Below are positions 25,989-59,515 of a stretch of DNA of 64,000 nt, one piece after another. The stretch is from Gammaproteobacteria bacterium (GTDB lineage Bacteria > Pseudomonadota > Gammaproteobacteria > Eutrophobiales > Eutrophobiaceae). Positions within the stretch are counted from its first letter, which is position 1. Each line of letters begins with the position of its first letter. The stretch lies in the NCBI GenBank assembly GCA_003250975.1, contig QKIY01000028.1, positions 283,039-347,038 on the forward strand, written 5' to 3'. The translations under genes and the position numbers were made by a program. The notes beneath the pieces were generated by a model. The model made no database searches, had not been told where the DNA came from, and worked only from the letters and a program-made list of their open reading frames with translations.

Positions 25989-27017
25989 TCAGGATGTACT
26001 GTTGGATTTTGCTGCAAACTCAAATGAGTCGGAGTAAATGTACTCTGCAGATAATCCCCGTTCGGTAAAACTATCAACCACGGCATGGACCATCGGCGGC
26101 GGTCCGCAGGCGTACACTTCAAAACCGGACAAGTCTTCAAAATCCTCAAGCACTGCCTCATGCACAAGACCGGTACGCCCCTGCCATTGATCATCTTCAT
26201 GTGGCTCAGACAGCACAGGTATGTAATGAAGTCTTTCCATCTCCTTGTCCCAGAACATCGCCAGGTCATGTAGGTAAAGGTCTTCTTTTGACCTTGCTCC
26301 CCAGTAAAAATGAATTTCCCGGTCAAGCGCCTTGTGGCGTGCACTTTCTATGATACTTTTGACCGGGGCAAAACCTGTACCTCCGGCGACCATGATAATG
26401 GGGCGATCAGAATCCTCTCTCAGAAAGAAACTGCCTAGTGGCCCTTCAATCCGTAGCAATGATTTTTCCTTAAGCTTGTTGAATGCGTATTCGGAAAATA
26501 CGCCACCCTCGTAATGTCGGACATGAAGCTCAAGATGTTCATCATCGTGAGGAGGATTGGCCAGAGAAAATGACCTGTGTTTGCCATTTAGCATGAGGAT
26601 ATCAATATATTGTCCGGCCAGGAACTGAAGACGCTCGGTCGAAGGCAACTTGAGAAAGAGCCGGAGTACATCATGGTTCAGTTTTTCTATTTTATCCACA
26701 CGGCAGGGTAATTTTCGCACGCTCAAATCACCAATGGCATCTATCTGCCGGGTTTCGATGCGGATATCAGTCAACGGCTTCGCCTGACAAAATAATGCGT
26801 AGCCATTTGATTTTTCCTCATCGTTAATTCCGGTTAACGGCACGTTGGTATATTCGATACGGCCTTCCAGCAGCTTGCCCTTGCATGAGCCGCACGAGCC
26901 ATTCCGGCACCCGTAGGGAAGGCCTATACCTTCACGCAGTGCAGCCGCCAGCACGGTTTCATTTTTTTCTGCAATAAATGTTGTTTCGGATGGTTCAATG
27001 GTGATCTTGAAGCTCAT
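25989..27017 (-). CDS. 2Fe-2S ferredoxin/FAD-NAD(P) reductase (CDP-6-deoxy-delta-3,4-glucoseen reductase family)
   Basis: CRNGSCGSC...C ferredoxin; RSFSLA; GGTGFAP; CGPPPMV. Confidence 0.9.
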   Translation of the reverse strand: MSFKITIEPSETTFIAEKNETVLAAALREGIGLPYGCRNGSCGSCKGKLLEGRIEYTNVPLTGINDEEKSNGYALFCQAKPLTDIRIETRQIDAIGDLSVRKLPCRVDKIEKLNHDVLRLFLKLPSTERLQFLAGQYIDILMLNGKHRSFSLANPPHDDEHLELHVRHYEGGVFSEYAFNKLKEKSLLRIEGPLGSFFLREDSDRPIIMVAGGTGFAPVKSIIESARHKALDREIHFYWGARSKEDLYLHDLAMFWDKEMERLHYIPVLSEPHEDDQWQGRTGLVHEAVLEDFEDLSGFEVYACGPPPMVHAVVDSFTERGLSAEYIYSDSFEFAAKSNSTS

Positions 27018-27055
27018 GAATCTTCCGGTGTGTTAAAAAAATCTGTGAATAATAA

Positions 27056-39897: not shown

Positions 39898-40130
39898 TTT
39901 TGTTCCCCTGTGAAGACTAGGATTATTAGATAGTTTTAATAATTTTTAGACAGGGGATTATACCTGCTCTTGGAAATCTGTGGAACTTGCTATGGACGAA
40001 ATTCGACTCGCAAGGTACCCTTCGCGATGCATTATCATTCGATCTTGCTGCTGGCGAAGCTGGGATTGTCGAGCCTAGTGACCGAAATCATCATGAACGA
40101 ATGGCCGCACTGGTAATCTTGTAAAACAAA

Positions 40131-40207
40131 GCGCCCTTAGCTCAGCTGGATAGAGCGCAGCCCTCCGGAGGCTGAGGTCAGAGGTTCGAATCCTCTAGGG
40201 CGCGCCA
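40131..40207 (+). tRNA. tRNA-Arg (anticodon CCG)
   Basis: GCGCCCT acceptor stem, D-loop AGCTGGATAG, anticodon arm CAGCC-CTCCGGA-GGCTG, GTTCGAATC, encoded CCA end; 77 nt. Confidence 0.97.
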
Positions 40208-40401
40208 TATATTCCAAATACACCTGCATAGCGTGTGTATTTGAAATATATATAGTTGTCAAGGAAAAGGGTGTATTCCATTCATAGAGTAGCTCCGGTC
40301 AGTCACGCACGTAGAGCATTACCATAGAACATGTCAATTAATTAAACCTATTTCTTGTTCCAGGAAAGAAAGACATAATCACTCAGGGGCTTAAGGAAAT
40401 A

Positions 40402-40423
40402 AATGTCACATCCTTGTGACATT
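40402..40423. promoter_or_regulatory. Perfect 9-4-9 palindrome, candidate operator
   Basis: AATGTCACA-TCCT-TGTGACATT; function not established. Confidence 0.45.
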
Positions 40424-40584
40424 CGCTTAGAGTGTAAAAAAGGAATAGAGGTGAATACATTTACTCCCTTAATAAAAAGTCTATATAATTTTTAAGGCTT
40501 TTGAATAGTACCAAAGTATAAAATTAGTCTTTTAAACGGCTAACCAGCCCCATTAGAGATTTGCAATAATATTGATTAAACAGT

Positions 40585-42957
40585 TTAAAATTCTTCCTGC
40601 TTTTTTCTTACCATCTGTTTAAGACGGTTAATGCATTCCTCGTACTGAGGATGAGAACCTTTTTTGAAGTAGTTAGAAAGGACAATAACCTCCGAGTAAA
40701 ACGCATCGTCTTCAGCAAGCCCTGCGATGCCCTTAAGCTTATGAATGTTATCGCGTTGCATGGAGACGTCTGAAATCTTTGCCCCTATGCTAATGTTTTC
40801 AAGCAATATCATAAATTCTTCAAGTAATTTGTTATTATTGATGTTATCAAGCCGTACTGAATCTGCAGTCGTATAAATCAGGTCAACCATGCCGCCAGAT
40901 ACAAGTTGCATGCATTGACAAATCACCTGAATCAAATCCTTTTCAAGAATAGGCTTGAATATAATGTTGTTTGCACCAATCTCAATTATATTGATAGTCT
41001 TCATTAAAAATGTATCAGCGGTCATAAGTATCACGGGAATATCAGGATCATATGATTTATCTGCACGGATAACCTTGCAGGTTTCTACACCATCCATTTC
41101 CGGCATATGAACATCGATTAAAAGCAAGTCCGGAGAGGATGCAGAGAAAATCTCAAGCAATTCCTTGCCGTTCTTTGCCTCTACTGTGAATGCGCCATAT
41201 TTTTTTAATATTTCTATAAGTAAGAGCCGGCTGAAGTCATGGTCTTCGGCAATAAGGATGGTTTTCCCTTTTAATATATTTTCGAAAGACTCTTTCCTAT
41301 CTTCATCATGTGGCGTTTTTAATATATAGGATGATGTAGGTGTAGCTGTGTTAAGGGATGTAGCATTTGAGAAATCAAGAATCACCGACATGGATGTTCC
41401 CTTACCAGGAACACTGTCAAGTGTAATTTCGCCATTGAGATAATCGACCAGTTTTTTAACGATATAAAGGCCGATGCCTGCCCCAAAGGCAGTATGTTTT
41501 GATGATGAAATCTGAGTAAATGATTCAAAAATCATTCCCCTATCTTCTTCTTTAATCCCTATACCGGTATCATGTACTGTAAACTTGATTCTGTATGCTT
41601 CAGATGATTTGTTTATTAGTCCTATTTCGATATTAATGGAGCCGGAATCGGTAAATTTTATGCTATTGGATATAATATTGTTTAATATTTGCATTAACTT
41701 AATCCTGTCACCTATGAGCTGCCTAGGCACGTTCTTGTCAATGGAAACTTCAAGTGACAGTTCTTTATCCCTGGCTGAGTTCTCATGCATGCTGACTATT
41801 TGTTCTATTAATTCATCCAGGTAGAAATCAGATAAATTAAGCTGTATTTTCTTTAGTTCAATCCTCGATAGACCAAGCAAATCATCAATCAGGGACAAAA
41901 GTAGAAATGCCGAGTTCTGTATAATTTCAATATGATGTTTATGGTTTTTATTGGTTATTGATTGATGGAGCAGGTCTGCGAAACCAATAATCGAGTTAAC
42001 CGGCGTCTTTAGCTCATGGCTCATTTTGGCAAGAAATTCATCTTTAGACTTGTTTGCCTGATCAGCCACCCTTTTCTGTTGATTCAGTTCTATGTTCTTT
42101 TTCTCAAGCTCTTTTAGAGCCTCGCGCATCTTGTCGGTGACTGTATAAACTTTCAGATCCATTTCGTTTTGATAACTTGATAGTTTTTTTGCCAGCAACT
42201 CAATACTGTTTGTGAGTTTTCTGAAATATTCAGGATAATTTTGTGGAAAATGAACTTCATATCGATCTTGTCCTAAGGTTTCGATAGCATTATTAATGCT
42301 GCTTATGTATCTGTTTATATAGTCACCGAATAAATAGGAAATGATTGATATAAAGAGCAGGCAAAATGTGAAAAAAAGAGCCGCAGTGTATTTTATCGTG
42401 TCTGTCTTCTGCGAAATAAATCCATGCGAGATCTCCATTATTACATAGCCCAGTAGTTTAGCTGGTCGATTAGAAAACGGGTATGAAAAATCCTGCTCAA
42501 CATCCATGCCCTTTGAATATACTTTTGCGAACCTGAATAACTTGTTGTTGTAATTAACAAGCTCATATGGATCCAATGAAAACATAAAGTAGTATTCAGA
42601 TGTAACTTTTTTCCCTGATTGAGAGGAGGCGAGTATCTCAAGATCCCTGTTTAGAATTGTTATACTTACAATATCATCCTTTATTTCAAAGGATTTTATT
42701 AATTGATCAAGTGATTCTCTGTCGCCCGCGAAAAGGCTGTATTCAGACATTCTGGACAGGTAACTAAGGGTTTTAATCTGGTTTTGGTTAATTGATTTTT
42801 TATAATCATTTATATATTGGCTAACGATATAAAATCCAAAGAAAACCCCCATTAATAATAATGGTATCAACCAGAGTATGATCAGATAGTGTTTAATGCT
42901 TAATTTACTTGTCAGCAGCATGAATGCTTTCATTAATATATTTTGACGAGCTTTCAT
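40585..42957 (-). CDS. Hybrid sensor histidine kinase (2 TM, HisKA, HATPase, REC, Hpt-like end)
   Basis: MSHELKTP, NIISNSIKFT, DTGIGI, GAGIGL, LIAEDH..IDVHMPEMDG and IHKLKG motifs. Confidence 0.93.
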   Translation of the reverse strand: MKARQNILMKAFMLLTSKLSIKHYLIILWLIPLLLMGVFFGFYIVSQYINDYKKSINQNQIKTLSYLSRMSEYSLFAGDRESLDQLIKSFEIKDDIVSITILNRDLEILASSQSGKKVTSEYYFMFSLDPYELVNYNNKLFRFAKVYSKGMDVEQDFSYPFSNRPAKLLGYVIMEISHGFISQKTDTIKYTAALFFTFCLLFISIISYLFGDYINRYISSINNAIETLGQDRYEVHFPQNYPEYFRKLTNSIELLAKKLSSYQNEMDLKVYTVTDKMREALKELEKKNIELNQQKRVADQANKSKDEFLAKMSHELKTPVNSIIGFADLLHQSITNKNHKHHIEIIQNSAFLLLSLIDDLLGLSRIELKKIQLNLSDFYLDELIEQIVSMHENSARDKELSLEVSIDKNVPRQLIGDRIKLMQILNNIISNSIKFTDSGSINIEIGLINKSSEAYRIKFTVHDTGIGIKEEDRGMIFESFTQISSSKHTAFGAGIGLYIVKKLVDYLNGEITLDSVPGKGTSMSVILDFSNATSLNTATPTSSYILKTPHDEDRKESFENILKGKTILIAEDHDFSRLLLIEILKKYGAFTVEAKNGKELLEIFSASSPDLLLIDVHMPEMDGVETCKVIRADKSYDPDIPVILMTADTFLMKTINIIEIGANNIIFKPILEKDLIQVICQCMQLVSGGMVDLIYTTADSVRLDNINNNKLLEEFMILLENISIGAKISDVSMQRDNIHKLKGIAGLAEDDAFYSEVIVLSNYFKKGSHPQYEECINRLKQMVRKKQEEF

Positions 42958-43895
42958 GGCGAGACCCCATCTACCGGCAATTCAATGTTGAGGAATCTTG
43001 CAACGGACTTGTTAAATGTGGTCAGGCTATTAGATGGGTATCCGGATTCAAGAACGGCAAATTCATCTGATAAATATTTGTATAATTTTTCAGATGCCTC
43101 ATTTAGCATTTTGTCAATATCGGTATAAAGTGCAGCAAGCGCTCCGGCCGCTGAGAACTTTTCTGAGTATCCGATAACCGGCGTCATATGTTTATAGGCA
43201 ATCTGCAAAATCCATTTCGAGGAAAAATTATTTATAGATTCCCCAGGCAGTATAATGATTCCATCAGATTTTTTGACGACATCTTCTATAATATTGGCCG
43301 GCACGCCAGCCTGATCCAACCTGCCAACAACAATATTCCTCTTTTTAGACGGATTGGATTTCTTGTACTCCTTGACAATAATCGAATTACTTTCGTCTAT
43401 GAACAGACCAATTGTTCGAATGTCGTCATCCAGTCTTGACAACAGATTGATATATTTCCCGAGAGGCTGATCAAGATATATTGCAGCGAGCGTGCCTGCC
43501 TTTGTTTTATGCCGATTGAATTCTGTTGATTGCGAAATCAACTCAAATGTGGATCTTGGGATGAGAATGCAGTACACAGGGCCGGGAATATCGTTTTCAA
43601 GTGTTCTAACTGCTGCATCGGTACCTATCGTAATTACCAGCTTGTATCCGGCAGTAGCAGGGGCTTTAGTAGGGTACAACTTGCCGTTATCTATCACTGT
43701 AATGTTTATGTGTGTTTTTTTTAATTTCTTCCCCAGAGTCGACTTTAACTGATTTGCCAATCTGTAGCTTATTTCGTTATGAGATGAAATTATAAGAATC
43801 TCGTCTTGGAGATTGTCCGCTAATACAGGAACAGACAGTAAATATATAAAGTAGAAGAGAATCTGCAAAAGTATTTTGAATCTCAGTAAAGCCAT
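42954..43895 (-). CDS. Periplasmic ABC-type substrate-binding-like protein
   Basis: Signal peptide; LVITIG, IYLDQP, PVIGYS...AGALAALY and N..VARFLNI match the ABC_sub_bind-like family; 4-nt overlap with the kinase gene. Confidence 0.75.
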   Translation of the reverse strand: MALLRFKILLQILFYFIYLLSVPVLADNLQDEILIISSHNEISYRLANQLKSTLGKKLKKTHINITVIDNGKLYPTKAPATAGYKLVITIGTDAAVRTLENDIPGPVYCILIPRSTFELISQSTEFNRHKTKAGTLAAIYLDQPLGKYINLLSRLDDDIRTIGLFIDESNSIIVKEYKKSNPSKKRNIVVGRLDQAGVPANIIEDVVKKSDGIIILPGESINNFSSKWILQIAYKHMTPVIGYSEKFSAAGALAALYTDIDKMLNEASEKLYKYLSDEFAVLESGYPSNSLTTFNKSVARFLNIELPVDGVSP

Positions 43896-43910
43896 CCTTG
43901 TATACGCTTG

Positions 43911-46001
43911 CTAGAATGAAACACCTATTTGCAGATAGGCACGCGTTTCAAAATTCTGTCCAACCTGGAACTCATCATAATCGCCCAGGAGATTTTGCAG
44001 GGTAAGTGAAAGATTTAACTCGTTATCTCCTTGTTTAATGGTTTTTCCGACCCGGAAATCCAGTCTTTCATATGAATCTACCGTTTCAATGAATCGTAGC
44101 CAGTGAATATCGGACAGGTGGTAAAATGCTGTGCTGAAATCGAATCCGCCCAATGTTCTAGATGCTAATATTCCCAAGCTGTGCTTTGGAACGGAATCAT
44201 CGATGCTAACATTAACAAGAGAGGCCCCCTGCTGTTGGGTTGCATCAACATCAGCATATGCATAATTCAGATGAATCAGTCCGTTATTCTCGAAGTTATA
44301 CTTGAGCTCTGCTTCAAAGCCGTTTATATCAGCCTGCGTAATATTGCCAGTAAAAATGCCATCAGGAATATTACCTGTTGGGGGCATACCCCGTGTTGAG
44401 TCGATACCATGCCTTAATTCATTGCGAAATATCCTCAGATCAAGGGATAAATCCCTAGCCATAAAATATCCAAGATATCCCGCTTCGAAACTGGTTAGCT
44501 CCTCGTTTTGTATATTATCTCCATCCGTAAAGGCGATGATGCCAAAAGGCGCTCCGTTATCGAACTCAACAGTAATCAGCTGTTTTCTGTCAAGCAGTGT
44601 AGGGGCACGCTCAGCATAAGAGACACTTCCCCTGAGTGCGTGTAAATCCGATAGGTGATAATTAAATGACAATCGAGGTGAACAGGATACATCATCGCGA
44701 TTACTGTCCTGTAACATGAAGGCGCCATTGATGGTCAGACTATCGGTTGCACGCAATTCAATACTGCCGAAATAACGATGTGTAACTTTTGATAAGTTGT
44801 CAGTTGTATTAAAGATTGACTTGCTGCTTAAAGTCTCATACCTGATACTGGCACCGAATTGCGCGCGAATATTGTTTAAATTGTAAATAGTATAATCTGT
44901 CTCAATGTCATAACGATGTGATATTGCCTTTGGTTTGATTGACATGATTTGGTCATTGGCGCCGAAAAGAAGATTTATAGTCGCCGGCGGGACTCCCAGC
45001 AGTGAGGAAAGTGGTTGCTCGCCAAACAAAAAGATCGGCCCCTGATCGGTGTTTCTATAGGAGTGCCCGGCTAGTACGTTCAGGCTGTTTTTACCAGGGG
45101 TAAGATGGTTCCAGCTGATCTGTTGCCTGCTGTGTTCAAATGATGAGTCATAGAAATCGATTGAACGAGTTGTTATCTCTTCTATGTCACCTTGACCGAA
45201 TGTCGTGTCCGCGTAGTAGACTTCGAATCTGAGCTCATCCCTGTTACTCGATGTATAGAGGCTGTTGAAGTTAAATGCGTATGTTTCAACAGAATCATCA
45301 AGTCCTGGGAATCCGTCCTCTTGGTTATAATTGGCTCCGAGAATATAATTGAGATCCTGAACGGATCCGGCATGTCGTAAATAAAGTGATTCTCTGTCAA
45401 CACTTCCCGTTGTTCCTTTTAGTTCAGTACCATCGGTCTGCAAAGGGTTCAATGTTATGATATTGATACTGGCTATAAAGGAATTGAATCCATGGCTGAC
45501 TGCATTGGGACTGCGGGTGATCTCTATACGCTCAATATCATCCACTGTAATACCTGCCAGTTCCCAGTTAACCGTGTTACTGCCCTCAGCGTAGATTGAC
45601 TGGCCGTTAATCCTGACTTCAATACGTTTTGGGAAGCGGTCAGAGAGACCATAGGGAGTGACCACCGGCTGGCCCGCATTGGCATAGCCCACCTGGAAAC
45701 CAGGGACCATTCGGAAAAGGTCTGCAATATCGAGCGCTCCGGAAACCTCGATCATCTTCCTGTCAATGACGGTAACAGAGACAGGTGTATCAATCAGCTT
45801 TTGAGGTAATCGGGTGGCATCTGTGATAACGGGGGTCTCATCCAGGAAATCTTCCTCTGAAAGGTAGACCTTGTCGTTCAGTTCTGCAGCACTGGGTGTT
45901 GAAGTGCTGCAAAAGAATAGCAAGAGCGAAAAATGCAAACCCCTGATACAGACCACAGATGTTCTGTAAAGAGCCTTAGCCATGGCATCCGGGAAGAGCA
46001 C
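43911..46001 (-). CDS. TonB-dependent receptor
   Basis: Plug pattern ATRLPQ...PVSVTVIDR...DLFRMVPG and IERIEITRSP; C-terminal aromatic strand YLQIGVSF. Confidence 0.92.
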   Translation of the reverse strand: MLFPDAMAKALYRTSVVCIRGLHFSLLLFFCSTSTPSAAELNDKVYLSEEDFLDETPVITDATRLPQKLIDTPVSVTVIDRKMIEVSGALDIADLFRMVPGFQVGYANAGQPVVTPYGLSDRFPKRIEVRINGQSIYAEGSNTVNWELAGITVDDIERIEITRSPNAVSHGFNSFIASINIITLNPLQTDGTELKGTTGSVDRESLYLRHAGSVQDLNYILGANYNQEDGFPGLDDSVETYAFNFNSLYTSSNRDELRFEVYYADTTFGQGDIEEITTRSIDFYDSSFEHSRQQISWNHLTPGKNSLNVLAGHSYRNTDQGPIFLFGEQPLSSLLGVPPATINLLFGANDQIMSIKPKAISHRYDIETDYTIYNLNNIRAQFGASIRYETLSSKSIFNTTDNLSKVTHRYFGSIELRATDSLTINGAFMLQDSNRDDVSCSPRLSFNYHLSDLHALRGSVSYAERAPTLLDRKQLITVEFDNGAPFGIIAFTDGDNIQNEELTSFEAGYLGYFMARDLSLDLRIFRNELRHGIDSTRGMPPTGNIPDGIFTGNITQADINGFEAELKYNFENNGLIHLNYAYADVDATQQQGASLVNVSIDDSVPKHSLGILASRTLGGFDFSTAFYHLSDIHWLRFIETVDSYERLDFRVGKTIKQGDNELNLSLTLQNLLGDYDEFQVGQNFETRAYLQIGVSF

Positions 46002-49520: not shown

Positions 49521-50135
49521 CTACCAGGTACTGCGTAATCCCTGAAGGTAAGCGGAAACGGCCTTGATCTCCTCATCCGACATGCGATCAACAACTCTGC
49601 GCATGACTTCATTGATATCGTTGGTACGAATATCTTCGCGAAAGTTGTTGAGCTGCAGTTCCAGGTAGGTTGAATGCTGTCCGCTCAACAATGGGTATTT
49701 TGCAGCCGGGTTCCCAAGCCCTGTGGGGCCGTGACATGCCATGCAGGCTGGTACGTTGGCTTCTAAATTGCCAGCGCGGTAAATCTTTTCGCCCAGATCC
49801 AGTAGCTCGGGTTCGGTTCCTGCGGGTCTGCGACGTTGACTGGAGTAGAAGGCGGCTAGGTCCTGAATATCCTGCTGACTCAGGTTGGCAGCCATGGGTG
49901 ACATCTGGGCATTCTCCCGGTGGCCGGCCTTGAAGTCTTCGAGCTGCTTGATGATATAACTTTCATGCTGCCCTGCTAGTTTCGGCCAAGCTGGGTTAGT
50001 GCTGTTACCATCAACACCATGGCATGCCGCGCAGGTTTGAGATTTCTGCTTTCCGGCAACGGGATCCCCCGCCGCGTATGCATTTGCTGTAATAATTTGA
50101 GTTGCTAGCAAGAATAAAAAAATGAGTTTCAACAT
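49521..50135 (-). CDS. Diheme cytochrome c4
   Basis: CAACH and CMACH heme motifs, PKLAGQ; start set at MLKLI. Confidence 0.95.
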   Translation of the reverse strand: MLKLIFLFLLATQIITANAYAAGDPVAGKQKSQTCAACHGVDGNSTNPAWPKLAGQHESYIIKQLEDFKAGHRENAQMSPMAANLSQQDIQDLAAFYSSQRRRPAGTEPELLDLGEKIYRAGNLEANVPACMACHGPTGLGNPAAKYPLLSGQHSTYLELQLNNFREDIRTNDINEVMRRVVDRMSDEEIKAVSAYLQGLRSTW

Positions 50136-50302
50136 ATTGCATAAATCCACGTCAGAAATTACATAAAATAAAGCGAGCACCCGTATCTAGCTTAGTAACC
50201 GAAGAACCCCGCCAACTGTTTACCGCCATCAAATCAGATAGGCAATAAGATTCTAAGCGGGCACAATGTTAGCAAAATATTGAAATTAATGAGACAAAAA
50301 CA

Positions 50303-50911
50303 TTGTCAGCTAATCTCTTCCAACAGGCTCGTTACCAGTTAAGCGCGCACACCCTTGCGCAATGCCCCGAGGACAGGGGTGCCGAGGTTGCCTTTGCAGG
50401 GCGATCAAATGTGGGTAAATCCAGCGTCATCAATGCGTTGACTGGCAATCATCGCTTGGCACGCACGAGCAAGACGCCCGGAAGGACTCAACAGCTTAAT
50501 TTTTTTGCCCTGAGTGAGACACGGCGGCTGGTAGATCTGCCGGGATACGGATATGCCAGGGTGCCGGAGAAGGTTCGCAAGCACTGGGGAAATGTGCTGC
50601 AGTCCTATTTTGAACAGAGGCGCTCACTCAAGGGCCTGGTCCTAATCATGGATATCCGTCATCCTCTGAGACCATATGACCGACAGTTGCTGACATGGTG
50701 CGAGGCCAGTTCCCTGCCCGCGCACATTGTCTTGAACAAGGCAGACAAATTGTCCCGGGGTGCGGCAAGCCAGGTACTACAGTCAGTCAAACGGGAGTTA
50801 TCGGGCGTAGGGGTATCAGTACAACTATTTTCGGCACAAAAGGGTACCGGTATTGAGGCCCTGCACGAGGTGTTGGCAGCGTGGCTGACTGGTGATTTAC
50901 CGGTAGACTGA
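50303..50911 (+). CDS. engB: Ribosome biogenesis GTPase YihA/EngB
   Basis: GRSNVGKS, SKTPGRT, DLPGYG and NKAD motifs. Confidence 0.96.
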   Translation: MSANLFQQARYQLSAHTLAQCPEDRGAEVAFAGRSNVGKSSVINALTGNHRLARTSKTPGRTQQLNFFALSETRRLVDLPGYGYARVPEKVRKHWGNVLQSYFEQRRSLKGLVLIMDIRHPLRPYDRQLLTWCEASSLPAHIVLNKADKLSRGAASQVLQSVKRELSGVGVSVQLFSAQKGTGIEALHEVLAAWLTGDLPVD

Positions 50912-51028
50912 AAAAAGATAGCCCCGGGGTGTTGTTAAGGGGAGAGGGCATCCCGGGGCTGAAAAACCCGGCTGGGGAGACCGGGAAAGCTTCATTCCTG
51001 GGGAGAGGAATGAATTATTTTGGGGTAC
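50911..51028 (-). ncRNA. Candidate sRNA with three C-rich stem-loops (Spot42/ErsA/sX13-locus type)
   Basis: Three hairpins each displaying (U)CUCCCC, terminal U-run, upstream sigmaE-type promoter, convergent with engB. Confidence 0.7.
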
Positions 51029-51032
51029 TTTA

Positions 51033-51060
51033 TTAGATAGAGACGGGCGGGTGAAAGTTC
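51033..51060 (-). promoter_or_regulatory. SigmaE/AlgU-type promoter
   Basis: Minus strand reads GAACTT-N17-TCTAA. Confidence 0.7.
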
Positions 51061-51096: not shown

Positions 51097-51310
51097 TTAT
51101 ACACAATTTCCACTTGATCCCATGTGCGATGCGGCTTTCAGCCCTGTTTTGCCGCTGTACGTCAATGATTGTGATATAATCTATTGATATTTAAAGATTT
51201 ATCACAGATGGTTAAAATTTGACAGTTTTGTCATACACGCGCTATTAAAGCCCATTAACGAGCTTTGTAAGTGCTTCGTCCACAGACTTATTCACAAAAA
51301 TTGTGGATAA
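51097..51310. promoter_or_regulatory. DnaA-box cluster with IHF site
   Basis: TTATACACA 51097-51105, TCGTCCACA 51276-51284, TTATTCACA 51288-51296, TGTGGATAA 51302-51310; IHF consensus TATCAATAGATTA (minus strand) at 51177-51189. Confidence 0.7.
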
Positions 51311-51408: not shown

Positions 51409-52851
51409 CTATTCGATCACCTTTAACAGGCTGTCCTGAGGGGGTTCACCGGCAGGAAACATCGCATTGATAAGCCGGAGTTGTTCCTCGGGGAAAAACT
51501 TCAGCGGTGAGATCTGGGCCAGCTTGGTAAAACGCGTTTCCTTGTCAGCATGAACGATCTTTATAATCAGCGGCCTGGCTATTTCCCGTTCGTTTTCAGT
51601 AAGCCGGTGAAAGGATTTTGCACTGTCAAGGAAATGAGGGTCATAGTTTGGAAACAATGATTCGTTCTTGCAAGCACCTGCCAGGATATAGGCCCGGTTG
51701 TCGAAATAAATGACCGTAATACGTACGGTCTGGTTTTTTATGGTAGTGATGCCGGTATGGGCCTCATTGCCATTGATCGTCAGCGGCATGCCTTTCGTCA
51801 GTTGCTTGATACCCAGTCGTGTCGCTATAAACTCTCCCGGGGTGATTCGTTTGTTAATATCCTCCACGTTTACCTGCATGAGTGCCTTGCCGCCCGGGGC
51901 GGTGACCAGTAACTGGGTGGGGAAGTTCTTGATGATCCAGCCTTGTGGGAACTGCAGGGCAAAATCCAGTCCCGCATGATAAAAGTGCCCGTCTCTGGCA
52001 ACGCCATCACGCTCACTGTCGCCAAATGTCAGACCGTTTATCTCCTGCAGGTATATGTCCCTGTTGACGATCCCCCTTGATTTGCTGCGGTATTTATCCG
52101 CACTTGCGATCACCTCTTGCAGGCGTGTGTCGTTGTCCGGGTGAGTTGCGAATAGGCCATGATAGATATTGGGTTCCCGTCCTTCCGCCTTCGCCGCCTT
52201 TTTCTCGAATTCCTCTTGGTTTTTTAGAACGCGGATAACATCTAACATGGCCTGTGGGTCATAGTCGGTACGGGCGAGGTATTCCGCTCCGAGCTGATCG
52301 GCTTCCAATTCGTGATCACGGCCATAGCCCCTTAGCAATGCCGCGCCAAACAATTGTGCCAGCTGGTTGCCTGTTGCCCCCACGCCGGCAAGAATTGAAC
52401 CGATGGTCAGGCCGATATTGGTGATCTGGGCTGCGCTGTACTGCCTGACTGCATGGCGAGCTGTCACATGTCCAATTTCATGGCCCAGTACCGCGGCAAG
52501 TTCTGCCTCTGAATTCAAATAGGCCATCAATCCGCGAGTGATATAGATGTAACCGCCTGGCAGGGCAAAGGCATTGACCTCCTTGCTGTCCAGTACGGTA
52601 AACCGGTAGATCAGGTCACTGCGATGACTCTTCTCGGCCAGTCGCTCACCAACCGACTGCACATAGGCCTGTAATTCCGCGTTTTCATAGGTGGTGTACT
52701 GCTCCAGTACCTGCTGGTGTGTCTGGCGGCCTAGTGCGATCTCTTCTTGTTCCGACATCAATACTAGGTCCTGTTGGCCGGTGACCGGGTTGGTTGCGCA
52801 GCCGGATAACAGGCTGAAAAGAGTCAGGATGGAGAATAGGGCTTTGTACAT
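51409..52851 (-). CDS. M48 family Zn metalloprotease lipoprotein
   Basis: Lipobox LSGC; NAFALPGG, HEIGH, ELEADQLG and THP motifs. Confidence 0.92.
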   Translation of the reverse strand: MYKALFSILTLFSLLSGCATNPVTGQQDLVLMSEQEEIALGRQTHQQVLEQYTTYENAELQAYVQSVGERLAEKSHRSDLIYRFTVLDSKEVNAFALPGGYIYITRGLMAYLNSEAELAAVLGHEIGHVTARHAVRQYSAAQITNIGLTIGSILAGVGATGNQLAQLFGAALLRGYGRDHELEADQLGAEYLARTDYDPQAMLDVIRVLKNQEEFEKKAAKAEGREPNIYHGLFATHPDNDTRLQEVIASADKYRSKSRGIVNRDIYLQEINGLTFGDSERDGVARDGHFYHAGLDFALQFPQGWIIKNFPTQLLVTAPGGKALMQVNVEDINKRITPGEFIATRLGIKQLTKGMPLTINGNEAHTGITTIKNQTVRITVIYFDNRAYILAGACKNESLFPNYDPHFLDSAKSFHRLTENEREIARPLIIKIVHADKETRFTKLAQISPLKFFPEEQLRLINAMFPAGEPPQDSLLKVIE

Positions 52852-59403: not shown

Positions 59404-59515
59404 GCGTTGTCCGGTGACCGCTTGCCGGTTTGTTGTCCTTCTGCCAATGGTTTTGCATTCCTTAGTAATTATTAACACTGTCACATTAGCCAGAAATATT
59501 AACGGGAGAGATATC

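Follow-up and report, generated by a model that had tools for sequence, protein, structure and literature searches.

Comparative sequence data indicate that the gap beside engB in the window (the whole 64,000-nt stretch analysed here) holds a real, widely conserved small RNA gene on the minus strand. We consider it likely that the product is a trans-acting sRNA of about 117 nt, read by sigmaE, which represses mRNAs through C-rich loops and belongs to a family of RNAs encoded between polA and engB. Judged from these sequences, the gene is unannotated and belongs, as a divergent member, to a large family in which anti-hemB, sX13 and, probably, ErsA are also found. In the proposed mechanism, RpoE (sigmaE/AlgU type) would read the promoter, the RNA would be made from the minus strand (~51027 to 50911) and transcription would stop at an intrinsic terminator abutting engB. 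The three hairpin loops would present CUCCCC and pair with G-rich, Shine-Dalgarno-like GGGGAG at or near ribosome-binding sites, and translation of a set of mRNAs would fall while sigmaE is active. The family would be spread through the Gammaproteobacteria (GTDB sense), with anti-hemB (ncS04), sX13 and probably Pseudomon-1/ErsA as lineage-specific branches.

A preliminary description had placed a promoter and three hairpins at 50911..51060 of the minus strand, and re-reading the letters confirms this layout to the base (Table 1). As a correction, the ~117 nt are counted from the predicted start (~51027) through to the final U. The loop of H3 comprises 23 nt and contains CUCUCCCC (also given as CUCUCCCCUU). 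The last U of the U-tract is the complement of the A in the engB TGA, and the terminator thereby overlaps the engB stop codon. The U-rich linker is a possible Hfq site; the genome encodes hfq, and the RNA may make some use of Hfq.

Table 1. Features of the sRNA gene and its convergent neighbor, in window positions
Feature	Position	Strand	Basis or remark
-35 element GAACTT	51060-51055	-	sigmaE/AlgU-type promoter motif, read from sequence
-10 element TCTAA	51037-51033	-	17-nt spacer after -35
Predicted sRNA, ~117 nt	50911..51027	-	Covariance models and fold; start predicted from promoter geometry
5' leader UACCCCAAAAUAA, single-stranded, fourth C-rich stretch	51015..51027	-	Also present in the two same-genus genomes
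Hairpin H1, UUCAUUCCU / CUCCCC / AGGAAUGAA, 9-bp stem	51014-50991, loop 51005-51000	-	Sequence, fold
Hairpin H2, CCCGGU / CUCCCCA / GCCGGG	50985-50967, loop 50979-50973	-	Sequence, fold
U-rich linker UUUUUC ahead of terminator	50961..50966	-	Conserved as UAUUUUU/UAUCUUU in alignment
Hairpin H3, terminator stem, AGCCCCGGG / CCCGGGGCU	50960-50920	-	Sequence, fold
AUC then U-tract UUUUUU, intrinsic terminator	U-tract 50916-50911	-	Sequence
engB (yihA), convergent neighbor	50303..50911	+	ORF list; defines conserved slot

The R2 covariance model matches in 66 of 151 genomes at E<=1e-3, with one genome per family across the class. Carriers include a cultured organism, Methylohalomonas lacus (L100). 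The window RNA scores 142.9 bits with the R1 model and 116.6 bits (E 4.6e-33) with R2, the latter by construction, since the window RNA is among the seeds of R2. The 38 class-level sequences are not seeds and were not used for building R2. Alignment by MAFFT followed by RNAalifold gave invariant stems only, because H1 was misaligned, and covariance-model alignments were used instead. Among the 43 family-level sequences 94.8% of cells are paired, compared with 76.4% when shuffled, and compensatory change, which the preliminary description had put forward as a check, is found at 18/23 pairs (0/500 shuffles). At class level 94.3% of cells are paired and 19/23 pairs show compensatory change (0/500 shuffles); the alignments behind these pair counts were themselves fitted to the covariance model, and the 32 loci from the contig scan were chosen by the H2 motif itself. 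H1 shows compensatory changes at all 9 pairs in both alignments. Its loop holds a C-rich 5-mer in 26/43 family-level and 32/38 class-level sequences and reads CCUCCC in relatives. H2 is nearly invariant within the family, and 6/6 pairs covary at class level. Its loop follows the pattern YCCCCA(A/G) and holds CCCC in 40/43 and 32/38 sequences, respectively, and the H3 loop does so in 39/43 and 33/38. The window RNA has all the features of the C-rich-loop family of the polA-engB slot: three covarying helices, C-rich loops, a terminator, a sigmaE-type promoter and convergent engB.

The minimum-energy fold of the minus strand is exactly H1, H2 and H3 (-39.5 kcal/mol, z -4.03), and 0/200 shuffles are as stable. 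Stability by itself is no guide to the strand, since the plus-strand fold is lower still in energy (-54 kcal/mol, z -4.85); the comparative data provide that guide. This stabler fold would suit a functional plus strand, the hairpins being either a 3' UTR or terminator array of engB or a protein-binding RNA of the CsrA-sponge type, with GGGGAG as its loop motif. On that strand the H1 complement and the UUAUUUU behind it also score as terminator-like, and engB requires a terminator, with H3 beginning 8 nt past its stop codon. However, the T-run past H3 on the minus strand is kept in 38/38 non-redundant homologues, whereas the A-rich run before H1, the would-be plus-strand U-tract, is found in the genus only. 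On the minus-strand reading G-U pairs number 55 and A-C mismatches 14, and the U-G pair that closes H2 in 31/43 sequences would turn into A-C, a mismatch, if the plus strand were the functional one. The RNA is kept in 9/29 class-level loci without engB within 1.5 kb, and the plus-strand loops, as read from the plus-strand fold, lack the CsrA motif, A(N)GGA. With the sigmaE-type motif likewise conserved on the minus strand, the U-tract, the promoter and the excess of G-U pairs bear out the strand chosen in the preliminary description. The plus-strand RNA that it had named as the alternative, a CsrA sponge or engB 3' UTR, is very unlikely.

We give almost no credence to a dual-function RNA that encodes a small peptide in the way that Spot 42 encodes SpfP. 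Such a reading could draw on the annotated spfP within spf, on a short frame opened by an AUG within the H1 3' arm and on a 54-aa frame that begins in the H3 loop. These frames have no ribosome-binding site and run through the terminator. ATG frames of at least 15 codons occur in 32/81 homologues only and are spread over all three registers relative to H2, and a conserved small ORF was rejected.

The promoter motif is conserved with the RNA. Its strict form, GAAC[TC][TAC]-N16-17-TCNHA, lies upstream of 57/80 homologues (0.0036 expected per 90-nt window) and its relaxed form upstream of 69/80 (0.058 expected per window). The relaxed motif is missing in the other 11/80, two of which have sigma70-like hexamers by eye. 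Counting both strands, the 2.30-Mb assembly has just 4 sites of GAACTT-N16-17-TC[TCA]AA, the window site among them. A bona fide RpoE is encoded in the genome (308.7 bits; cut-off 236), and the earlier claim of a sigmaE-type promoter motif stands. Transcription of the window RNA and its dependence on sigmaE are predicted from these sequences. The relaxed motif has 33 sites genome-wide, of which 10 precede an ORF. The Pfam families of these ORFs are mixed (HlyD, FecR, DUF4124, LolA, SoxYZ, plastocyanin-like, aminotransferase and a gyrase fragment), so that no clear envelope regulon emerges; ahead of rpoE itself there is only an imperfect version, CAACTT-N15-TAACA. MicA, RybB, MicL and VrrA are sigmaE-promoter transcripts that form the repressor arm of the envelope-stress response, with 5' single-stranded seeds and mRNAs of outer-membrane proteins and lipoproteins as targets. 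The window RNA differs from them in sequence and structure, and none of the four was matched in Rfam searches of the window.

An EngB homologue is convergent within 1.5 kb at 17/19 family-level and 20/29 class-level loci, and polA lies directly upstream of the RNA in 13/29 class-level loci. The locus is thus the slot of Spot 42, ErsA and sX13, and the ancestral place of the RNA family is probably between polA and engB. The preliminary description had held that the slot is retained here without polA, and this is correct: in other families the RNA lies between polA and convergent engB, while in the window genome polA sits 122 kb from the RNA gene. ErsA is placed between polA and engB as well. 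Spot 42 occupies the same slot (polA, then spf, then convergent yihA/engB) and is CRP-controlled. It differs from the window RNA in lacking C-rich loops and in bearing the annotated spfP gene (SpfP peptide), and the R2 alignment to spf (17.9 bits) is confined to the U-rich linker and terminator.

Two conserved DnaA-box features lie beside the gene: a single box 37 nt upstream of the -35 element and a DARS-like trio (51276-51310) 250 nt upstream of the RNA gene, the only such trio in the genome. The DnaA-box pair co-localises with the RNA in few lineages only. An oriC at the locus was rejected, as GC skew stays positive across the whole window and reaches its contig minimum at ~145 kb, compared with 334 kb for the locus. 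Together with the position between convergent genes, the box and the trio could suggest a DNA-level element, either a bidirectional terminator or a piece of a DARS-like region, that does not function as an RNA. Most homologues, however, lie beside polA without the DnaA-box pair, and terminators do not keep, in 66 families, a sigmaE-type promoter, a 5' hairpin that covaries and one fixed motif in three loops. We regard such an element as extremely unlikely.

The preliminary description had also suggested comparison with Rfam, and here the window RNA passes no gathering score (sX13, Pseudomon-1, Spot 42 and anti-hemB). At E<=10 neither sX13 (RF02232, gathering score 50 bits) nor Spot 42 (RF00021) has a match in the window. 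ErsA/Pseudomon-1 (RF01719) gives 14.2 bits (E 4.1-6.4; gathering score 50). The best Rfam match for the window RNA and its relatives is anti-hemB (RF02837), whose full model, 1-81, aligns at 50913-51013 (-) with 19.4 bits (E 0.069; gathering score 49.5 bits). The two share the same order of parts: first a 5' hairpin whose loop is of the CCUCCC type, next a middle hairpin, and last a terminator rich in GC. They differ in that the Rfam model has 81 positions and short H2 and H3 loops without C-rich motifs. In relatives the anti-hemB model reaches 21-38.6 bits at family level and 29-49.8 bits at 16/20 class-level R2 loci, one of them above the cut-off. Across the 151 genomes it matches in 74 at E<=1e-3, with 8 above the cut-off, mostly at R2 places. 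The chain of intermediates from the window RNA to bona fide anti-hemB at the same locus is continuous, and one bona fide copy (L190) has polA upstream and GGAACTA-N16-GTCTGA. This RNA is also named 'Burkholderia RNA 7' and ncS04 of Burkholderia cenocepacia J2315 (RF02837). The account of ncS04 in PMC5688073 gives its function as not known and its expression as unchanged under the conditions tested.

The sX13 RNA is described as ~115 nt long, with a 5' end free of structure, three stem-loops bearing CCCC/CCCCC and a place always downstream of polA (PMC3771888). The window RNA likewise has three CCCC-loop stems; polA is distant here and adjacent in the 13/29 class-level homologues given above. 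In a bona fide sX13 copy (L183) the H2 loop reads CUCCCCAAG, similar to YCCCCA(A/G) in the window family. A clear sigmaE motif is not seen upstream of that copy, and sX13 differs further in being reported as limited to Xanthomonadaceae. The sX13 model reaches up to 25.2 and 34.8 bits on relatives, and sub-threshold sX13 matches coincide with R2 places.

Matches of the Pseudomon-1 model coincide with R2 places as well. In one genus (g108) it scores 30-47.3 bits in 8/8 genomes, and R2 scores 37-44 bits at the seven loci scored. The search for a bona fide ErsA copy covered the order of genome G068, represented by one genome, and the order of genome G109, in which the ErsA model gave near-threshold matches, none above the cut-off. 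The genomes compared include no bona fide Pseudomonas copy, so the link to ErsA rests on these near-threshold relatives (47.3 bits). ErsA is described as sigma22-dependent (PMC8395346, PMC13613067), and its sigmaE-family (sigma22/AlgU) promoter and envelope-stress control are features that the window RNA would share. The hairpin loop CCgCCCUAGC and terminator loop CCCUCCCC of its Rfam consensus match H2 and H3, but at the place of H1 in the window RNA the consensus has 33 nt of unstructured 5' sequence. A review calls ErsA a functional orthologue of Spot 42 (PMC8395346).

R2 scores only 17.7 bits on bona fide sX13 and only 17.2 and 11.4 bits on bona fide anti-hemB. The superfamily therefore rests on the intermediates, the shared locus, the promoter and the loop motifs. 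The preliminary description had seen in the window RNA a combination of ErsA-like control with an sX13-like structure. Both features appear ancestral to one large family, and the RNA is not a hybrid. In the literature searched, no two of the names sX13, anti-hemB, Pseudomon-1, ErsA and ncS04 were found in one paper, save for the paper that equates anti-hemB with ncS04.

By analogy with sX13, the loops of the window RNA would act by anti-Shine-Dalgarno pairing. sX13 represses through C-rich loops that pair with G-rich ribosome-binding-site motifs, and mutations in loops and targets, as described in PMC3771888, showed direct dependence on this pairing, with Hfq dispensable. When the three loops were scanned for duplexes with 2466 crude gene starts (mean -13.1 kcal/mol, sd 4.0), no gene of the window was an outlier. 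The targets proposed in the preliminary description, which itself called such seeds weak, are not supported: the porin ribosome-binding site (59504-59510) ranks only 172/2466 in this crude scan. GGGGAG lies 3-11 nt before the start codon of 35 candidate genes in the genome, among which envelope proteins are not obviously over-represented on inspection by eye. We also considered hfq as a conserved target, as it is for sX13, and rejected it. The hfq of the window genome carries GGGG at +9 to +12, but GGGG lies near the start in 3/25 RNA-bearing and 1/5 RNA-less genomes, which is not discriminating, and the start region is mostly AAAGGGC in genomes with and without the RNA. That no specific target emerged from the genome scans fits a real RNA that mainly binds a protein or generally mimics the 16S rRNA 3' end (CCUCC), with no defined set of mRNAs. 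A decoy typically carries several near-identical loops, as the three here are, loop 1 of relatives, CCUCCC, is the anti-Shine-Dalgarno sequence itself, and ncS04 is reported to bind Hfq (PMC5688073). Against this, sX13, the sole mechanistically studied relative, acts by the direct, Hfq-dispensable pairing just described, and ErsA base-pairs with the algC and oprD mRNAs (PMC8395346). We regard such a decoy as unlikely and prefer repression of a set of mRNAs by pairing.

A broader view, which we offer tentatively and hold at somewhat below even chances, is that a single ancient riboregulator, controlled by sigmaE and bearing C-rich (anti-Shine-Dalgarno-like) loops, arose in the polA-engB spacer of a beta-/gammaproteobacterial ancestor and gave rise to ErsA, sX13, anti-hemB/ncS04 and the window RNA. 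Spot 42, matched over linker and terminator only, may be a remnant of it, and the neighboring DARS-like trio could here couple envelope stress to replication initiation. If this is true, sX13 of plant-pathogenic Xanthomonas, ErsA of Pseudomonas and ncS04/anti-hemB of Burkholderia, so far studied in isolation, would share origin, promoter logic and loop chemistry. About half of the families would then share an unrecognised post-transcriptional arm of the envelope-stress response. Sigma22 control, C-rich/G-rich pairing and Hfq use could be tested as predictions in about half of the gammaproteobacterial families sampled, uncultured sulfur oxidisers such as the window organism among them. In practice, the window gene and most of its relatives go unannotated under the current Rfam thresholds; a broader model would bring them in.

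The window RNA, read from the minus strand, consists of three successive hairpins behind a short 5' leader, and its minimum-energy fold contains exactly these three (−39.5 kcal/mol, z −4.03), with none of 200 shuffled sequences as stable. The hairpins and promoter sequence first described match both the sequence and this fold base for base. Many class-level homologues (loci L150-L154 and L160, for example) carry an extra short 5' hairpin of the GUUC...GAAC type ahead of hairpin 1; in its place the window RNA has a single-stranded ACCCCAAAA leader.

Features of the sRNA gene and its surroundings (window positions)
Feature	Position	Strand	Sequence or remark
-35 element	51060-51055	minus	GAACTT
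-10 element	51037-51033	minus	TCTAA, 17-nt spacer from GAACTT
5' leader	before hairpin 1	minus	UACCCCAAAAUAA; short
Hairpin 1	51014-50991	minus	UUCAUUCCU-CUCCCC-AGGAAUGAA
Hairpin 2	50985-50967	minus	CCCGGU-CUCCCCA-GCCGGG
Linker	between hairpins 2 and 3	minus	U-rich
Hairpin 3	50960-50920	minus	AGCCCCGGG, 23-nt loop containing CUCUCCCC, then CCCGGGGCU
3' end	U-tract 50916-50911	minus	AUC and six U
engB	50303-50911	plus	final base of stop codon is the complement of the last U of the sRNA
M48 peptidase gene	51409-52851	minus	upstream neighbour of the sRNA; Pfam assignment made on relatives
DnaA-box trio	51310-51276	minus	TTATCCACA-ATTTT-TGTGAATAA-GTC-TGTGGACGA
Fourth DnaA box	51097-51105		perfect; 37 nt upstream of the -35 element
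Two further DnaA boxes	26692-26700, 27044-27052		perfect; 350 nt apart
Low-GC stretch	40001-44000		GC 0.38 over ~4 kb, ~0.50 in rest of window
tRNA gene	40131-40204		only one in the window
Cytochrome c4 gene	49521-50180

BLAST among 40 relatives finds the segment spanning hairpin 2 through the U-tract (50985-50911) in 14 other genomes with 74-89% identity, embedded in otherwise diverged intergenic DNA. A scan for the hairpin-2 motif, one genome per species, returned at least 119 loci; among those listed, hairpin 3 is also present in 32 (and one incomplete), a set chosen by motif and uninformative on hairpin-2 conservation, and the others are chance matches in high-GC genomes. The 5' region forms a hairpin in every one of 38 non-redundant sequences, with differing stem sequences. 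Three sequences were used to build a covariance model, R1, with which 43 were aligned; the exact hairpin-2 motif is absent from four of them, in which stems 2 and 3 have changed compensatorily while the loops are still C-rich. Paired cells make up 94.8% of the family-level alignment (A4, n=43) versus 76.4% after shuffling, and 94.3% of the class-level alignment (A5, n=38, no sequence of which was used in building the second model, R2) versus 78.5%; 0 of 500 shuffles reach the observed value in either case, with both alignments biased toward structure by being fitted to a model and the shuffles taking no account of relatedness. Slid controls of A4 give 31-58%. The covariation sought in relatives is present, with compensatory changes in 18 of 23 pairs in A4 (hairpin 1, 9/9) and 19 of 23 in A5 (hairpin 2, 6/6). 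On this comparative evidence the element is a genuine sRNA gene, conserved but missing from the annotation, and its expression is predicted.

The minus strand is indicated by several features: the T-run directly after hairpin 3 (38/38 sequences), the strand of the promoter motif, an excess of G-U pairs (55) over A-C mismatches (14) when read as minus strand, and the closing U-G of hairpin 2 in 31 of 43 sequences, which becomes an A-C mismatch in the plus-strand reading. In the single window sequence the plus-strand fold is indeed the more stable, and the complement of hairpin 1 could terminate engB transcripts; but the A-run that such a terminator requires is confined to the genus. There is no conserved reading frame: an ATG frame of at least 15 codons occurs in only 32 of 81 sequences, and these frames are spread over all registers.

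The promoter of the minus-strand RNA is conserved as well. Of 80 aligned copies, 57 have GAAC[TC][TAC]-N16-17-TCNHA in the 75 nt preceding them, compared with a background in the same loci of 15 matches in 379 kb (0.0036 per window), and 69 have the relaxed pattern GAACNN-N15-17-TCN, versus 0.058 expected per window. Upstream of many class-level copies the sequence is GGAACTT-N16-GTCT[AT]N, which is the known RpoE/AlgU promoter consensus (GGAACTT-N16-TCNAA). The strict motif occurs four times in the whole source genome, which encodes RpoE (308.7 bits, NCBIfam equivalog cut-off 236.15). ErsA is reported to be sigma22-dependent by experiment (PMC8395346, PMC13613067). Together, the conserved motif, the encoded RpoE and the ErsA precedent strongly suggest sigmaE control of the window RNA.

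R2 detects the RNA in 66 of 151 genomes drawn from the class, one per family (52/123 among high-quality genomes). The 66 include two unpublished genomes (G165 and G063, the source of loci L153 and L154), without which each class-level count falls by at most two. Several genomes (G075, G120, G055, G145, G138) have 2-4 copies, some in tandem. Tandem pairs lie ~300 nt apart in G075 and ~1.6 kb apart in G120, locus L185 has copies at 1201-1313 and 1497-1612, and such multiplicity is reminiscent of sibling sRNAs. Among 29 class-level loci, engB lies within 1.5 kb in 20, convergent every time; the upstream gene is polA, immediately adjacent on the same strand, in 13, an SNase-like gene in four, an M48 peptidase in three and another gene in nine. 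Of 19 family-level loci, 17 have convergent engB within 1.5 kb. These counts point to polA, RNA, convergent engB as the ancestral order, in agreement with the proposed placement at the Spot 42/ErsA/sX13 locus. The source genome has polA at 211 kb on the contig and its single RNA copy at 334 kb, so polA moved away and the RNA, retained without its polA neighbour as first suggested, remained beside engB.

The same intergenic region contains a trio of perfect DnaA boxes: box I, 5 nt, inverted box II, 3 nt, and box III oriented as box II. Orientations and offsets are identical to those of E. coli DARS1 in the bioD-uvrB spacer (TTATCCACT-ATTCC-TGTGGATAA-CCA-TGTGTATTA) and agree with the DARS core definition as published (PMC6868365). 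In relatives, 17 of 19 M48-linked loci retain the inverted pair, ~255-300 nt upstream of the RNA, and 17 of 19 likewise have the fourth box, ~60-95 nt upstream. The pair is unique in the assembly, as is the cluster of three perfect boxes. Of the 151 class genomes, 78 contain the pair, versus 0 for the reversed control; just a few lineages (G122, G165 and the family of the source genome) have it adjoining the RNA. We take the trio to be a separate DARS-like element, a chance neighbour of the RNA here. GC skew rules out this locus as oriC. The cumulative skew minimum near 145 kb on the 408-kb contig (G000 C35), outside the window, is a candidate origin ~190 kb from the DARS-like element. Elsewhere, the drop in GC comes just after the tRNA gene and marks a possible integrated island, and a SoxY-SoxZ fusion gene (G000 C39:146533-147390) together with the cytochrome c4 gene suggests a sulfur-oxidising lifestyle.

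Across homologues the stems drift and the loops are kept, and therefore the loops are the working parts. Loop 1 is typically CCUCCC-like (C-rich 5-mer in 26/43 at family and 32/38 at class level), loop 2 YCCCCA(A/G) (CCCC in 40/43, partly by selection, and 32/38) and loop 3 CUCCCC(C)U (CCCC in 39/43 and 33/38). The C-rich loops of sX13 are described, from deletion mutants, loop mutants and GFP reporters, as repressing, independently of Hfq, mRNAs whose ribosome-binding site has a G-rich motif in it or close by (PMC3771888); for ErsA, Hfq-assisted repression of algC and oprD is reported (PMC8395346), and for ncS04, Hfq binding (PMC5688073). By analogy the window RNA most likely acts in the same way: sigmaE would induce it, its CUCCCC loops would pair with GGGGAG-type sequences, and pairing would lower translation. 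Hfq, whose gene is present in the source genome, may bind the U-rich linker together with the terminator tail. Among possible targets, GGGGAG occurs at a suitable distance from the start codon in 35 genes of the source genome. When 2466 crude gene starts were scanned for duplexes there was no outlier, and the porin ribosome-binding site listed as a possible target in the preliminary description ranked 172nd, which does not bear it out as a target. The GGGG motif of hfq, considered as a target too, does not track with RNA presence.

At gathering thresholds no Rfam family matches the window RNA. At permissive thresholds anti-hemB scores 19.4 bits and Pseudomon-1/ErsA 14.2 bits; sX13 and Spot 42 have no match in the window. 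The anti-hemB model reaches 38.6 bits in family-level relatives; at class level, 16 of 20 loci score 29-49.8 bits with it (one above cut-off). It matches 74 of 151 genomes (eight above cut-off), largely at R2 coordinates. Sub-threshold sX13 matches (G137, G075, G025, G098, G055) also coincide with R2 places, as do all three ErsA-model matches among the 151 genomes (G068, G109, G169). In the genus of G109 the ErsA model scores 30-47.3 bits in 8/8 genomes, and R2 scores 37-44 bits on seven loci. In the Rfam consensus for ErsA the first 33 nt are unstructured; a hairpin whose loop reads CCgCCCUAGC and a terminator whose loop reads CCCUCCCC follow. ErsA thus has hairpins 2 and 3 of the window RNA's family and has lost hairpin 1. 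R2 itself recognises a bona fide sX13 (17.7 bits) and bona fide anti-hemB copies (17.2 and 11.4 bits) weakly. E. coli spf (L278:600-710) likewise scores 17.9 bits, aligned over the linker UAUUUU and the terminator GCCCCAG...CUGGGGC only; Spot 42 occupies the same polA-engB slot, and this match may be a trace of shared ancestry or a resemblance that any such terminator would show.

The window RNA is a divergent new addition to the anti-hemB/sX13 group. In our reading, intermediates, locus, promoter and loop motifs join these RNAs into one superfamily, of which the window RNA is a member outside all three Rfam families as currently delimited. In the literature searched, no paper links sX13, anti-hemB/ncS04 and Pseudomon-1/ErsA, beyond one equating anti-hemB with ncS04. 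The wider interest lies in this unification at the level of families and in the conserved sigmaE-type promoter.
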